Shown: positions 55,762 to 59,496, numbered from the stretch's first letter. The stretch: DNA of 64,000 nucleotides from Minisyncoccota bacterium (GCA_041651415.1 JBAZJH010000001.1:11374-75373), one strand, 5' to 3'. Notes: a model not told the origin generated them from the letters alone. Program-made: numbers and translations.

Positions 55762-55836
55762 TCCCCGGTAGCTCAATGGTAGAGCGCTCGGCTGTTAACC
55801 GAAGGGTTGTAGGTTCGAGTCCTACCCGGGGAGCCA
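55762..55836 (+). tRNA. tRNA-Asn (anticodon GTT), CCA encoded
   Basis: tccccgg ta gctcaatggtagagc g ctcgg-ctGTTaa-ccgaa ..gtaggttcgagtcctac ccgggga g cca. Confidence 0.8.
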
Positions 55837-55983
55837 CGTAGTGAGAGGTTCAAGTGACCGAAAGGAGTTTTAGTATTCAAAGAGGTTTTGAAGGGATATA
55901 AGATAGGGGAGTATGTGGGGGTTTAAAATAAAAAAGCCCGAGAGGATTAGTCTCGGGCAGAGTTTTTGATTTACCAAATCAAT

Positions 55984-57102
55984 TTACCAGCTAATGCCTG
56001 CTTTTTGCAGAGCTTCAGCCATTTCATTATTACTGTTTGAATCAGAAGATAATTCATATGATCGATTTCCTTCTTTATCTTCTGACTCGTTTACTTTTGG
56101 GGGCGGCGCCATTTCAGGACGGTAGGCGATTGTTTGCCCGCCGTAATCCCGTTCATTTACGAATTGCTGGGCGATGTTTTCAGCCCAGCTGTTCGGAACG
56201 ATAACGAGCTTATAGCTGTCGCTCCCGCTTCCGCCGCCACGGCAGGTGGAACCAAGTTTTTCAACTTGGCCGGCATTGTCCCAGTCAATATAGAAGCTGG
56301 GCCAACGCTTGGCACCGCAACCGGGTGAATATTCATGAACGAGAACGACGCATCGTTCTCTGTTCACTTCTTCACCTTCTTTGATCGGTGCAATAACGAG
56401 TTCGTTGTGCATGTCTCGGCCAAAGCGGGCTGTTTCCAACGTGGTGTTGGACTCTGTGGCAAAACCATGTGCCATCTGCCCGCAACCATTTTGAGAACAA
56501 TTTCCGTCAGCGTCCAAGGTTATACCACTACTGGTATCATTCCCTGAAAGCTGAAAGAGGCGAAAGTTTCCGGGAAGCCAGGTGATGTTTTCCTCGGAGT
56601 GTGTGGGATCATTACGACGATCCCAGTCTTGCTTTTCCCAAGTTTGGGATTCTACTTCCACACCGTTCCAGGTATGGACTTCAACCTGATTGGTACGACG
56701 TCCGTAGGAATGGAAAGCCATGGATTGGCCTATGTCTAGCAGAGCAGCAACCGCAATGCCAGAGTTACAGGCGTTGCTGGCGCTGCATTCGGCTAATAAT
56801 TTTCCGGTGGTAGCTTCTTTGAGAATATCTACGCCTCCACGGAAACCACCGCTGGAGCTGACGAATAGAAGGCAACGATTGGTAGTATCTTCACCACCAA
56901 CCACCATGATTGTGCCCTTTTCCGCTTCTTTAAGAAGGCGGAAACTGTTTTCCGGTAAAAACCCGTTCTCTTGCGGAGTAACACCTTTCACTGGCAGGCA
57001 CGCTTCGTCTGTTTGGTTCCGGCCATATTGCATACTACATCGGTAGGCTGGAAAACCGTCGGTTGAAAATTGCCATTGAGAAGTTAAAGAAATATGTTTC
57101 AT
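55984..57102 (-). CDS. Hypothetical protein, paralogous domain shared with the upstream gene (start reassigned to MKHISL.., preceded by a ggaggg SD)
   Basis: Shares the block ...NRCLLFVSSSGGFRGG...EVHTWNGVEV with the upstream protein (...NRALILWSVSSGYRGS...ILTYDGENVTV). GC content is visibly higher than the rest of the window. Confidence 0.4.
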   Translation of the reverse strand: MKHISLTSQWQFSTDGFPAYRCSMQYGRNQTDEACLPVKGVTPQENGFLPENSFRLLKEAEKGTIMVVGGEDTTNRCLLFVSSSGGFRGGVDILKEATTGKLLAECSASNACNSGIAVAALLDIGQSMAFHSYGRRTNQVEVHTWNGVEVESQTWEKQDWDRRNDPTHSEENITWLPGNFRLFQLSGNDTSSGITLDADGNCSQNGCGQMAHGFATESNTTLETARFGRDMHNELVIAPIKEGEEVNRERCVVLVHEYSPGCGAKRWPSFYIDWDNAGQVEKLGSTCRGGGSGSDSYKLVIVPNSWAENIAQQFVNERDYGGQTIAYRPEMAPPPKVNESEDKEGNRSYELSSDSNSNNEMAEALQKAGISW

Positions 57103-57112
57103 GGCATCCCTC

Positions 57113-57820
57113 CTATAGGTATTCGCCAACGACTTCTTCCGAAGTTGCGGCGAAAATTTCATTACCACCGAACACGACTGTAACATTTTCACCGTCGTAG
57201 GTAAGAATGCCACGAGTTCCTTGTACTCGCCGACCGGAACGGCTGGCTATTAATTGCTGGCCTGGTTCCAAAATGGCAAGCATTTCAGCAGTTGAGCCAA
57301 GGTTGCCGCGTCCGGAGTGCCATGATTCATCGGTAGCGATGACTTTGACGCCTTCGTTTGCCGAAATACTGGCACTGCCTCGATAACCGGAAGACACACT
57401 CCATAAAATCAATGCGCGATTATCGTCCTCTTTTGGTGCGACAATCAAGTGCATGCCTTTTTCGGTTTTGATGATTCCGACATTCTTAATAACGGCGCTA
57501 CTTAAGATTTCGCCACTTTCCGGATGATAACGATAATAAAGGCCATCATCTAATTTCCATTCTCCATATTCTTTTCCGCAAGATTCACAAACATGATTTG
57601 CAGAACAAGTATCGGGAAGGGCAGAATGATCGCTTTTTCCTTGATGAGGGCAAGGTAAAAATTTTTTCTCAATTACCTTGTTCGCATCATGTTTTCCGAT
57701 TGGGATCCACGTGGCTCTTTTGTGACCGCCTTGCCCCATAATAATTCGGGGGTAGGGGGAGTCCATACTCACAGAGATTCCTTGATTACTTCCGTTGAAT
57801 ACTTTCATTGTTTCCTCCAC
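57113..57820 (-). CDS. Hypothetical protein, paralog of the downstream gene
   Basis: 235 aa, containing a CxxC..C-rich segment (HVCESCGKEY). Same high-GC composition. Its stop lies 10 nt before the next start. Confidence 0.4.
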   Translation of the reverse strand: MEETMKVFNGSNQGISVSMDSPYPRIIMGQGGHKRATWIPIGKHDANKVIEKKFLPCPHQGKSDHSALPDTCSANHVCESCGKEYGEWKLDDGLYYRYHPESGEILSSAVIKNVGIIKTEKGMHLIVAPKEDDNRALILWSVSSGYRGSASISANEGVKVIATDESWHSGRGNLGSTAEMLAILEPGQQLIASRSGRRVQGTRGILTYDGENVTVVFGGNEIFAATSEEVVGEYL

Positions 57821-58285
57821 TTTTTCGTGCCCGTGAGGTTTGGATTTGGCATATAGCCACCTCGGGGGCGGGAAATTTCAGTAAATATATTTTAGGGTAC
57901 TGTCTTAATTATAGCATAATTAATATAAATAGTCAAGTTTTTCTGATGTGCTAGGGAGTGTAGTATTTGTGGCATTTTGACTCTAAAATAGGGTTATTAA
58001 AAGTGACCGAGGGGCGTCGAGAAAGGTTTCTAAAATCTCTTAAAAAACCTTTAATGGTCTAGACTAGAAAGGTTCTTGAGCGTGGTGGGGAGCCAAGTTT
58101 ACAAAAGCTGACAGATAGTAATTTAAAGCAAGACAATTTTAAGAGGAGAAAAAAGCCAAGTTATAAAACATTAGGATTAAAATGGTTGATAAGAGTTTAC
58201 GGAATCAAAGACAAAAATCGCCAATCTGGCGATTTCTTGGTATAATAAAAGAGTATAAATAATTTAAATATAATGATTATTATTT

Positions 58286-58765
58286 ATGAAAACTAACAAT
58301 ACTTTAAAACTCATCATTGCTATCATTGTTTCCGAGCTTGCCGGCATTATTGGTTCGGTCTTCACCACTCCTTCCATTGCCGGCTGGTATGCCGGTATCG
58401 TCAAACCGGCTCTTAATCCGCCGTCATGGGTCTTCGGTCCGGTTTGGACGACGCTGTTTGCCTTTATGGGCATCGCGGCGTTTTTAGTTTGGAAGAAGGG
58501 ATTGAATCGTAAAGACGTGAAAATCGCACTCGGCATATTTCTTGGCCAGCTGGTCTTGAATACTTTTTGGTCAATAATCTTTTTCGGTTTGCATTCTCCG
58601 GGCGGCGCATTTATTGAAATCATATTCCTCTGGCTGGCTATTTTTGCCACGATCATCGCCTTTGTAAAAATTTCCAAACCAGCCGCTTGGTTGTTGATAC
58701 CATATATTCTTTGGGTTAGCTTCGCCAGTTATCTGAATTTTATGATCTGGATATCAAATTTATGA
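58286..58765 (+). CDS. tspO: TspO/MBR-family (tryptophan-rich sensory) membrane protein
   Basis: PSWVFGPVWTTLFAFMGIAA...NTFWSIIFFGLHSPGGAFIEI...LIPYILWVSFASYLN, five TM helices and Trp-rich motifs. Confidence 0.75.
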   Translation: MKTNNTLKLIIAIIVSELAGIIGSVFTTPSIAGWYAGIVKPALNPPSWVFGPVWTTLFAFMGIAAFLVWKKGLNRKDVKIALGIFLGQLVLNTFWSIIFFGLHSPGGAFIEIIFLWLAIFATIIAFVKISKPAAWLLIPYILWVSFASYLNFMIWISNL

Positions 58766-59280
58766 GTAAGAGGGTTATCAAGGTCAATGACCGGATGCAA
58801 AAAAAATACCGATACGAACTCACCGAGCCGGTCGGTAAAAATTTCCATCCTGATTTTAAACCCGAACTAACACCAAAACAAATGCTTGCGCTCGGTGTTT
58901 TCGGTGGCGTATATATGCGTGATTGCATGAAGGAATTTCCAAAGGACTGGTTCGTCAAAGCCAAATTTCAAAAGAAGGGGGTCTATGCGCATGATCCCGG
59001 CATTAACTTTTTTAAGGTAAACGCCAGTCAGCCGCTTTCCGTCTGGCGCAAGAAAGGCTGGATTTACAGGGATGACCCGCGCGGATGGTTTCAATGGTAT
59101 TGCCGCTACTATATGGGGAGGCGGTTATCCGGCGAAGACGAACGGCAAATCAAACGTTGGAAAGCCATACGGCGACACATATCGCAGATAAAAAAGAATT
59201 GCCAACTGAGAAACTTAACCTGTCGTCCGACGCAAAGGCAGGCTGTTCTGCACTGGGCATACGACAGTCGGAAAATGTGA
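58762..59280 (+). CDS. Hypothetical protein (Trp/Tyr/Arg-rich)
   Basis: 172 aa. Start overlaps the tspO stop. High GC like its neighbours. Confidence 0.4.
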   Translation: MSKRVIKVNDRMQKKYRYELTEPVGKNFHPDFKPELTPKQMLALGVFGGVYMRDCMKEFPKDWFVKAKFQKKGVYAHDPGINFFKVNASQPLSVWRKKGWIYRDDPRGWFQWYCRYYMGRRLSGEDERQIKRWKAIRRHISQIKKNCQLRNLTCRPTQRQAVLHWAYDSRKM

Positions 59281-59496
59281 AGAATGTAAGTTATTAGACT
59301 GAGCGAGATTTTTACTCAGTCCAATCGAACGGCTATTCGTGACGGAGCATTTTGACGGCCGCGTCCATTTCGTAGGAGTGCCAGCCGTTTATGATTACGG
59401 TTCGAAGTTTACGCACGGCTCTGAGCGAGACAAAACAAAAACCACTCAAATCAAATGAGCGGTTTTTGTTTTGTCTGGTAAAAATTATTCGGGGAT

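Follow-up and report, generated by a model that had tools for sequence, protein, structure and literature searches.

Proteins of the STIV B116/AFV3-109/YddF family (PF08960) were the first reported to be common to crenarchaeal viruses and bacterial mobile elements, and B116/AFV3-109 binds dsDNA (PMC1796864). Integrative islands and islets adjacent to tRNA genes lie beyond the tRNA 3′ end, are absent in sister genomes, deviate in composition and carry phage- or recombinase-linked cargo. In the usarudiviruses SIRV4–11, SIRV11 ORF44 and its orthologues (phrog_13554) are small accessory viral genes near the genome end. Acidic C-terminal docking tails are known in bacterial SSB (..DDDIPF) and in T7 gp2.5. 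Ig-like β-sandwich domains (the Ig domains of ICAM, nectin and TrkC) also belong among the closest known systems. Here, we describe a two-gene cassette, A/B, from a Minisyncoccota bacterium (CPR), located in a 64,000-nt stretch of DNA (GCA_041651415.1 JBAZJH010000001.1:11374-75373; hereafter, the window).

The A/B pair shares each of the above traits of tRNA-adjacent islands and, unlike them, spans only 2.3 kb, has no integrase or clear att site and shows a near-native GC3. Similarly to the STIV B116 family, the superfamily to which A and B are assigned below spans archaeal viruses and bacterial mobile elements. The two are linked by one fusion (member P0184, which carries a STIV_B116-like domain) and one neighborhood (a B116-like gene near the pair in locus L005), whereas their folds are unrelated, the association occurs in two lineages only, and no HMM match to PF08960 was found in A or B themselves. 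The resemblance to SSB and T7 gp2.5 is an analogy only: family members are small, β-rich and found near phage recombination genes, with an acidic end and a hydrophobic last residue. An SSB reading of the tails was considered and is not supported, as neither an OB nor a gp2.5 fold was found.

The locus had been described before, in an earlier note that proposed one GC-rich island holding A, B, tspO and a Trp-rich gene. We find most of the features named there, and the limits of the unit to be wrong: the accessory unit appears to be A/B alone, at about 55865–58115 (Table 1). The tRNA-Asn(GTT) and the two adjoining minus-strand ORFs are where the note had put them, with A running 57820..57113 if read from its GTG (235 aa). 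This longer ORF is present, and the ATG at 57808 (231 aa) is the likelier start, favored by an upstream GGAGGA, by homologs that begin MK.. and by the L052 ortholog, which is 231 aa long.

Table 1. Features of the A/B locus and its surroundings (window coordinates).
Feature	Position	Strand	Remarks
tRNA-Asn(GTT)	55762..55836	+	ARAGORN and Rfam; border of variable segment
A/B cassette	55865..58115	-	limits set by homology to contig L052 (blastn)
Hairpin, 8 bp, 6 GC	55936..55958	.	T-runs on both strands; predicted terminator; kept in L052
Gene B, 372 aa, WC435_00360, long-B form	55984..57102	-	
A-B spacer with GGAGGG Shine-Dalgarno overlapping the A stop	57103..57113	-	from sequence
Gene A, 231 aa, WC435_00365	57113..57808	-	
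Predicted sigma-70-type promoter of A/B operon	57908..57936	-	TTGACT-17-TATAAT; kept in L052
Perfect palindrome ATCGCCA-N3-TGGCGAT	58217..58246	+	overlaps -35 of a TATAAT promoter reading into tspO
tspO (TspO/MBR family)	58286..58765	+	outside cassette; Pfam match
172-aa basic Trp-rich ORF	58762..59280	+	start overlaps tspO stop (ATGA)
Long AT-rich hairpin	59428..59476	.	between convergent 172-aa and 383-aa genes; probable bidirectional terminator

Comparison with two genomes places the borders of the cassette. Positions 914–3175 of contig L052 align by blastn to window positions 58115–55865 with 85.2% nucleotide identity; the L052 flanks on both sides are unrelated to the window, L052 contains no tRNA, and its A/B pair occurs without tspO. 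The B gene of L052 appears split, which proved to be an N-gap artefact and not a pseudogene. In the sister genome L016, whose pyruvate kinase is 80% identical, blastn homology covers window positions 54112–55834 and then ends at the 3′ end of tRNA-Asn, with other genes beyond. Since this is the last position common to L016, we take the tRNA as the border of the variable segment. A/B is absent at the corresponding places in L016 and L044–L047, and in relatives with the same tspO operon, genes for type III RM, DUF3644 and HTH_17 replace it; an RM-like module also lies 3 kb from A/B within the window. These comparisons mark the interval between tRNA-Asn and tspO as a variable hotspot and support A/B as accessory, movable DNA at the tRNA-Asn border.

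The suggestion of horizontal acquisition is borne out to this extent. No integrase, recombinase or transposase was found in or beside the cassette, A and B being the sole ORFs of 55837–58285, both lacking a Pfam match; integrases or resolvases were encountered at other loci only. A repeat of the tRNA 3′ end was not found at the far border of the segment, and the only repeat (17 nt, 82%; 55852–55868 and 58001–58017) is indistinguishable from chance. General adjacency of the family to tRNA genes was considered and rejected, as only 2 of about 30 loci have a tRNA no more than 1 kb away. The third-position composition of A is typical of the genome, so that any transfer was not recent, or came from a donor of similar composition.

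The proposed rise in GC content over ~55.98–59.3 kb is real within A/B (47.5% for 55980–57820, against 39.7% for the window, where 1-kb segments have an SD of 3.6%) but is modest, not unique and not continuous. Sliding-window and tetranucleotide analysis gave z = 2.1 for overall GC and z = 2.4 for tetranucleotides in A/B, and the 16S gene and a 1167-aa surface-protein gene (49.1–52.6 kb) deviate equally or more. Codon positions 1 and 2 account for most of the excess; GC3 is 39.7% in A and 45.6% in B (z about 1), with a window-gene mean of 38.6 and an SD of 6.9. Runs such as ccggcg and gccgcc are not, as had been claimed, absent from core genes: these hexamers are found 110 times in the window as a whole and only twice in A/B, and GC-only hexamers reach 12.0 per kb in A/B vs 10.8 per kb overall.

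GC is above average in B, A, tspO and the 172-aa gene alike, with GC3 z-scores of 1.7 for tspO and 2.3 for the 172-aa gene, and the four are enclosed by the tRNA on one side and a strong hairpin on the other. These observations fit a single island of ~3.5 kb gained together after tRNA-Asn. We nevertheless consider such a joint gain, which our data contradict, very improbable. The rise in GC is discontinuous because the A-tspO spacer has a GC content of only 33.5%, and the two units occur apart, with A/B lacking tspO in L052. Conversely, tspO and the 172-aa gene are found without A/B in L044–L047 at 87–90% nucleotide identity, which is confined to both genes (in L044, 90% over window 58285–59302 only). 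The assignment of tspO itself was correct, with a match over model positions 1–145 of 145 of PF03073 (E=1.4e-50, 171 bits, cut-off 24), and so was the description of the 172-aa protein as Trp-rich (7 Trp, pI 10.2). The latter has at least 8000 homologs at 72–96% identity in Patescibacteria, no Pfam model and no PADLOC family at E ≤ 0.1. It belongs to a very large, very conserved and nearly universal Patescibacteria family and not to island cargo, and the two genes form a separate, translationally coupled conserved operon.

Similarly, A and B carry their own operon signals, from which we predict that they are co-transcribed: a promoter, two Shine-Dalgarno sequences, a short gap and a terminator. 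The promoter matches the consensus at 11 of 12 positions, has an extended TG and is conserved in L052. The stop-to-start gap between the A TAG and the B ATG is exactly 10 nt, as noted earlier, and its length is the same in L052 (about 10–11 nt). The hairpin at 55936–55958 is predicted to end the A/B operon and possibly also terminates the tRNA transcript. Upstream of A, the block with the ATCGCCA-N3-TGGCGAT palindrome also precedes an unrelated divergent gene in L052. The possibility that the 5′ UTR or the sequence upstream harbors a conserved structured RNA or a riboswitch was rejected: Rfam gave nothing at E ≤ 1, fold z-scores are -1.45 and -0.41, and the non-coding identity to L052 (80–86%) does not exceed that of the coding parts. 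Past the 172-aa gene, the convergent palindrome read earlier as a terminator does form a strong hairpin (21-nt arms, 95% complementary, -30.6 kcal/mol, z=-7.8); it remains only a probable terminator, and a simple scan omits it, as no T-tract flanks the stem.

Comparison of A and B with their L052 orthologs gave dN/dS values of 0.15–0.18, and this purifying selection argues that both genes are functional. Family members do occur in prophages, and the integrase is gone from this locus, as would be the case for decaying, non-functional prophage remnants. This interpretation is hardly credible, as the ORFs are intact and under selection, the promoter, Shine-Dalgarno sequences and terminator are consensus-like, and the folds of both proteins are predicted with very high confidence.

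Protein A consists of N-terminal strands with PYP..G.GGHKRATW, a Cys/His zinc-ribbon-like insert (aa ~51–98; 57515–57658), a core domain with NR.L, SGYRG, WHSG, GQ and GRR motifs (aa ~100–215; 57164–57511) and an acidic tail, ..EEVVGEYL. Protein B comprises an N-domain (aa 1–165; 56608–57102) in which aa ~57–153 form the core common to both proteins, a C-domain (aa ~166–330; 56113–56607) and a low-confidence acidic linker followed by a C-terminal helix, ..AEALQKAGISW (55987–56112). The paralogous domain of ~100 aa postulated earlier is supported by BLASTP (29% identity over 100 aa, E=1e-5) and by hhalign of the two family profiles (probability 95.2%, E=2.7e-8, 91 columns), which sets the common domain at ~95 residues. 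The superfamily core comprises ~115 residues, is predicted to be a β-sandwich and has invariant NR.L, SG[FY]RG, GQ, GRR and W.G motifs.

Searches of Pfam, NCBIfam, PHROGs and PADLOC returned nothing usable for A and B or the 172-aa protein, PADLOC-DB v2 had no family at E ≤ 0.1 for A or B, and PDB profile searches with both families found no relative, in agreement with the impression that the pair belongs to no recognizable family. A deep search matched 267 cluster representatives among 1.84e9. On these profile and alignment comparisons, A and B are homologous and belong to one rare, undescribed superfamily, and their predicted shape is unlike any solved structure. The superfamily seems to have expanded in Parcubacteria/Paceibacterota.

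Both the gene pairing and the tails are conserved. A small core-domain gene directly precedes every long-B gene for which upstream sequence is available (window, L001, L003, L005, L024 and L052); for two of these, the window and L052, the preceding gene belongs to the distant A clade and not to the short-B clade. A 482-aa gene that follows an A homolog in L018 was considered as a cryptic long-B and rejected, with no BLAST and no C-domain HMM match. In two protein lists, short-B and A proteins nearly all end in ..AEVL or ..GEYL; a stricter tally among deep-search representatives gave 62 of 141. Proteins with a C-domain share an ..AL(R/K)KAGL tail, and the tails have low pLDDT in monomer models. 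Some long-B tails read ..GSLG.AL.KAGL (cf. the GSLxxGSL-type encapsulin peptide); an encapsulin-cargo reading was considered and is not supported, as no locus gave a Pfam match to a Linocin_M18/HK97-fold shell. We note that family members are mostly mildly acidic, which is atypical of a simple DNA binder.

Links to viruses are recurrent. One member adjoins an integrase in a prophage that also encodes portal and TerL proteins, another is on a phage-like contig, and three IMG/VR phage contigs carry relatives, which are next to RecT or flanked by Gam and a Mu-type transposase. The phage contexts are early or recombination regions and not structural modules, whereas the earlier note had envisaged an effector or structural system. 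Serine recombinases occur near members in 4 locus groups. The A model is matched by SIRV11 ORF44 (ARQ96723, A0A1X9SKG1) with a Foldseek E of 4.9e-7, probability 1.0 and TM 0.57, and phrog_13554 gives A a weak sequence-profile match (E=0.016; 3 of 57 family members match). ORF44 and the family have in common their size (184 aa for ORF44), EKGT.V..N.VL..SGFRG..SV and SGR.R motifs and an acidic C-terminus. In contrast, sequence identity is 16%, the host is a hyperthermophilic archaeon, and ORF44 is a single gene without a long-B partner, whereas A and B are paired. The match gives provenance and not mechanism. Searches with tblastn found no sequence match for A or B in INPHARED phages, where the rudivirus fold match is the one exception, nor for B in PLSDB plasmids; no locus was confirmed when IMG/VR was scanned with the A-family alignment, and an exact-word scan of IMG/VR for the conserved cassette block gave none.

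Many short-B genes, dozens of them on Parcubacteria contigs, instead stand alone amid housekeeping genes. In L029, a short-B gene lies near ftsA-ftsZ, as in the window, which could reflect old vertical residence, and in L042 another is 3.4 kb from a 64%-identical tspO. Together with the codon-position pattern of the GC excess, the genome-mean GC3 of A, strong purifying selection and the absent integrase and att, these placements would suit Parcubacteria lineage-specific cellular proteins (e.g., a cytoplasmic structural or regulatory complex), inherited mostly vertically, with GC raised by Gly/Ala/Arg and positions altered by CPR shuffling. We regard this alternative as unlikely. It does not sit well with an 85% identical cassette between sharply unrelated flanks in L052, with its absence from the equivalent places in L016 and L044–L047, with relatives carried by bona fide phages, by a prophage and by a rudivirus, or with the extreme rarity and patchiness of the family.

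The neighborhoods of family members also include Fic, AAA_14/DUF4143, NYN, PLDc_2, Csx3-AAA, DpnI and the serine recombinases. With type III RM in the same slot of relatives, the nearby RM-like module of the window, a patchy distribution and a compact gene pair, they raise the question of a novel two-gene anti-phage defense or abortive-infection system in a defense hotspot. This role is doubtful, and decidedly an outside candidate: A and B have no PADLOC match and no recognizable nuclease, NTPase, sensor or effector domain. Phage early operons (RecT, Gam, transposase) and a lytic archaeal virus contain single small members, which phage replication or counter-defense fits better. Numerous neighbors are, moreover, housekeeping genes, which are frequent because CPR genomes are compact.

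In sum, we place about even confidence in A/B as a self-contained, movable cassette of a virus-linked superfamily, encoding a hetero-oligomer that acts in DNA transactions or virus-host conflict. The cassette consists of promoter, gene A, gene B and terminator, set between tRNA-Asn and the tspO operon, and its superfamily would circulate in phage early or recombination regions, at prophage integrase borders and, as ORF44, in usarudiviruses. Both the heteromer and the docking of tails are purely inferred: (I) small A and large B would form a cytoplasmic hetero-oligomer, (II) the acidic E-x-L C-terminus of the small subunit would dock on the arginine-lined core of its partner, and (III) B would bring in another novel domain, together with a basic C-terminal helix that recruits a third partner. 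Its field of action may be mobile-element DNA or nucleoprotein transactions or conflict with the host, as an accessory to replication or recombination or in counter-defense; such a role is most likely, over one in metabolism or cell structure. Our best guess is hence a virus-derived heteromeric module working on DNA or in virus-host conflict. The more far-reaching version, in which a new fold and superfamily of viral origin, common to archaeal rudiviruses, tailed phages and CPR bacteria, forms a tail-docked small/large complex that controls DNA ends, recombination or a host defense while a mobile element establishes itself, and in which a novel early-gene or counter-defense module of phages was domesticated as a portable CPR cassette, is speculative and probably not correct in full.

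CPR/Patescibacteria genomes are small yet rich in proteins without relatives, and one such pair is now delimited as a discrete, apparently movable cassette, under selection and with high-confidence structural models that have no solved counterpart. Its family ties bacterial to archaeal viruses, where few families span crenarchaeal viruses and bacterial mobile elements, and it is found alongside the B116/YddF family, with one fusion between the two. If a role in recombination or counter-defense holds true, A/B would represent a new phage-host module and offer a handle on the little-known mobile elements of CPR bacteria. Regardless of function, the tRNA-Asn/tspO slot constitutes a variable hotspot, and the 172-aa neighbor is a nearly universal, unannotated protein of Patescibacteria.

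The window belongs to a 298-kb contig in a MAG of Candidatus Paceibacterota (CPR/Patescibacteria). There, genes A and B make up a complete transcription unit and are closely coupled in translation. The coordinates, gene sizes, GGAGGG Shine-Dalgarno sequence, 10-nt A–B gap, tspO and hairpin are all as the earlier note described them.

Features of the A/B locus and of other regions of the window discussed in the text
Feature	Window position	Strand	Remark
16S rRNA gene	4153-5938
1167-aa protein gene	49108-52611		Big_9 Ig-like domain
Pyruvate kinase	54611-55642	-
tRNA-Asn(GTT)	55762-55836	+
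Terminator hairpin	55936-55958		GC-rich, bidirectional
Gene B, WC435_00360	57102..55984	-	372 aa
Gene A, WC435_00365	57808..57113	-	231 aa (235 aa from upstream GTG)
A/B promoter	57936-57908	-	near-consensus, TTGACT-17-TATAAT
Spacer between A and tspO			33.5% GC
Palindrome	58217-58246		perfect, ATCGCCA-N3-TGGCGAT (58217-58233), with overlapping promoter
tspO	58286-58765	+
172-aa ORF	58762-59280	+	ATGA overlap with tspO stop
Hairpin	59428-59476		21-bp arms
383-aa membrane-protein gene	59497-60648		convergent, after the preceding hairpin
79-aa protein gene	60911-61150		HTH_3
324-aa ORF	61152-62126		no Pfam match
484-aa protein gene	62123-63577	-

The extent of the accessory unit is revealed by comparison with related DNA. 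In a sister MAG (L016), whose pyruvate kinase is 80% identical to that of the window, the alignment covers 54112-55834 at 76.5% nucleotide identity and ends essentially at the 3' end of tRNA-Asn, beyond which a 101-aa ORF and an HNH gene stand in place of B. Three further loci (L044-L046) are 90% identical in nucleotides over 58285-59302 only, that is, over tspO and the 172-aa gene. The DNA preceding tspO holds DUF3644, HTH_17 and a type III restriction-modification system in these three, and still other genes in a fourth (L047). A last locus, L052, holds the same pair (A 93%, B 77-89% amino-acid identity; the apparent split of its B gene reflects an N-gap) and matches 55865-58115 at 85.2% nucleotide identity; the 11-nt gap, the promoter and the terminator all recur there. 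No tRNA follows the cassette in L052, and its divergent upstream neighbor is an unrelated 118-aa membrane-protein gene. The slot holding the cassette therefore varies among relatives, and the accessory unit is a 2.3-kb cassette with A and B alone. These three comparisons refute the proposal that B, A, tspO and the 172-aa gene travel as one higher-GC island, a reading we now regard as very improbable; that the pair is the remnant of a dead prophage, equally contradicted by the comparisons with related DNA, is scarcely credible. We found neither an integrase within the cassette nor a convincing att repeat flanking it. As a genomic feature, such a small tRNA-side islet is of a familiar kind.

Both genes are under purifying selection. 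Measured against L052, A has a dN/dS of 0.15 and B one of 0.15-0.18, so both are functional. Along the cassette (window 55984-57808 versus L052 1226-3053), dS climbs steadily from 0.22 in A to 0.37 in the N-domain of B and 0.85 in its C-domain, with dN/dS remaining at about 0.15-0.18, which suggests recombination within the cassette or quicker turnover of the C-domain.

The elevated GC content on which the island had been proposed is real in A and B (47.5% versus 39.7% overall, about 2 SD), but it is neither unique nor continuous. The 16S gene and the gene for the 1167-aa surface protein deviate no less in GC and tetranucleotides, and runs of the ccggcg or gccgcc type, wrongly said to be missing from core genes, occur 110 times across the window and only twice in A/B. 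The excess lies in codon positions 1 and 2, with GC3 at 39.7% in A and 45.6% in B versus a gene mean of 38.6±6.9, and so largely mirrors amino-acid composition. No other stretch of the window deviates as much in composition as the 1167-aa gene (tetranucleotide z 3.9, GC up to 50%), despite its normal GC3 of 39.5%; consequently, amino-acid composition alone yields “GC islands” in this genome. Long antisense ORFs overlapping B and its homologues in L001-L008, such as one of 108 aa at 56720-57046 on the plus strand, group together in all-versus-all BLAST; they are by-products of the GC-rich coding strand and not genes.

The neighboring regions show features of their own. The 172-aa protein is basic (pI 10.2), Trp-rich and translationally coupled to tspO, in a pair kept in relatives. 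Its homologues, spread across the Patescibacteria, number at least 8000 at 72-96% identity, and searches of Pfam, NCBIfam and PDB gave no match. It is an unannotated CPR protein of near-universal occurrence, core-like rather than cargo. The palindrome overlaps the -35 element of a TATAAT promoter just 5' of tspO. The same block recurs at L052 804-835, before the unrelated divergent gene beside the cassette, with no further occurrence in the window or the other 51 loci; the approximately 100 nt between block and cassette do not align between window and L052. The 383-aa protein combines a signal-like N-terminal segment, a C-terminal multi-span membrane region and weak bactofilin/FapA beta-solenoid repeats, its Pfam matches falling under gathering thresholds. 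Further on, the 484-aa protein joins an N6/N4 DNA methylase to two further domains, a LexA DNA-binding domain and an S24 self-cleaving peptidase, and adjoins the 79-aa protein and the 324-aa ORF, so that 60911-63577 looks like a restriction-modification-like module whose methylase has a repressor-type N-terminus. The 16S gene measures 1786 nt versus a 1533-nt model and must therefore contain one or more insertions, which are common in CPR bacteria.

A and B have no Pfam, NCBIfam, PADLOC or PDB sequence match, and A matches only phrog_13554, a family of unknown function, marginally. The paralogy suspected from sequence is borne out by BLASTP (29% identity over 100 aa, E=1e-5) and by profile–profile comparison (probability 95%, E=2.7e-8), and the joint alignment reveals invariant L, G-x-R-G and G-R residues inside NR.L, SG[FY]RG, GQ, GRR and W.G motifs. 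Database searches recovered three related groups: long-B proteins (335-451 aa), with the N-domain, a second C-domain and in some a further extension; short-B proteins (~224 aa), with the N-domain only; and the A family (176-274 aa), with the window's A in a subclade marked by a Cys/His zinc-ribbon-like insert. The long-B C-domain carries the motifs LVHEYSPGSGAKRWPSF ... GSGSD ... GWAENIA.QF..ERD, and proteins with this domain continue through a disordered linker to a terminal ..AL(R/K)KAGL. In the small members the carboxy-terminus is a conserved acidic ..E-x-L (VGEYL in A, DAEVL in short-B); this ending is near-universal in the lists of short-B and A proteins and present, by a stricter tally, in 62 of 141 more distant deep-search representatives. 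Both A and B lack a signal peptide and any hydrophobic segment; A is near neutral and B, at pI 4.9, acidic. The superfamily is rare, with only 267 cluster representatives among 1.84 billion matching the shared-core profile.

A viral structure library returned one significant structural neighbor, the 184-aa protein ORF44 (E=4.9e-7), encoded close to the right end of the genome of Sulfolobus islandicus rod-shaped virus 11 and confined to the North-American usarudiviruses SIRV4-11. The shared motifs EKGT.V..N.VL..SGFRG..SV and SGR.R recur in ORF44, as does an acidic tail. Since no characterised family is matched by sequence or structure, and the sole relatives are unannotated virus and CPR proteins, A and B are new at the family and fold level.

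Links to mobile elements extend to bacterial contigs. One A-type gene is the first beside a tyrosine integrase in a prophage with portal, TerL, HNH and amidase genes, another is carried by a phage-like contig made up of small ORFs, and others adjoin serine recombinases. N-domain relatives occur in early or recombination regions of three IMG/VR phage contigs, one adjoining RecT and another flanked by a Gam-like gene on one side and, on the other, by a Mu-type transposase with an IstB-like ATPase. Furthermore, the superfamily member P0184 (355 aa) is fused C-terminally to an STIV_B116-like domain, 40% identical to a free-standing B116-like gene (L005 6428-6778) 1.2 kb upstream of a short-B/long-B pair in Parcubacteria GW2011_GWA2_47_12. 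B116/AFV3-109/YddF proteins bind dsDNA and were reported as the first family common to crenarchaeal and bacterial viruses (PMC1796864).

Other neighbors on CPR contigs are mixed: regulators (TrmB, HTH_38), defence or mobile genes (Fic, AAA_14/DUF4143, NYN, PLDc_2, Csx3-AAA, DpnI, TnpB-like) and housekeeping genes. We note that a distant relative (L029 4074-10690) is syntenic with window 45-49 kb at ftsA-ftsZ, a short-B gene following 2 kb past ftsZ, and that in L042 (1-4054) 3.4 kb separate a short-B gene from a tspO with 64% identity to that of the window, an interval that includes an AbrB-like gene, NYN and DpnI. This loose linkage to ftsAZ and tspO, the many housekeeping neighbors and the native GC3 would suit a vertically inherited, CPR-specific cellular complex, which we consider unlikely. 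A new two-gene defence system is suggested by defence-type neighbors and by the slot being a hotspot; A and B show no PADLOC match and no recognisable effector domain, and this reading seems quite unlikely.

We instead favor a movable, virus-derived, functional two-protein module, a reading whose chances we judge about even. A and B share a common fold and are under purifying selection. In each of the six long-B loci whose upstream sequence is present, the gene directly before long-B is a small core-domain gene, the place of the usual short-B being taken in the window and L052 by a distant paralogue of the A clade. A and B would form a cytoplasmic heterocomplex via the shared domain, in which the small subunit's conserved E-x-L tail may dock with the invariant arginines, and the basic C-terminal helix of B may recruit another partner. 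The positions of relatives in phages and the B116 link point to DNA or nucleoprotein transactions, or virus–host conflict, as the probable field of action; the specific DNA or counter-defence mechanism is rather unlikely. CPR bacteria are rich in such orphans, and the pair is noteworthy nonetheless for its viral link across domains and its confidently predicted novel fold.
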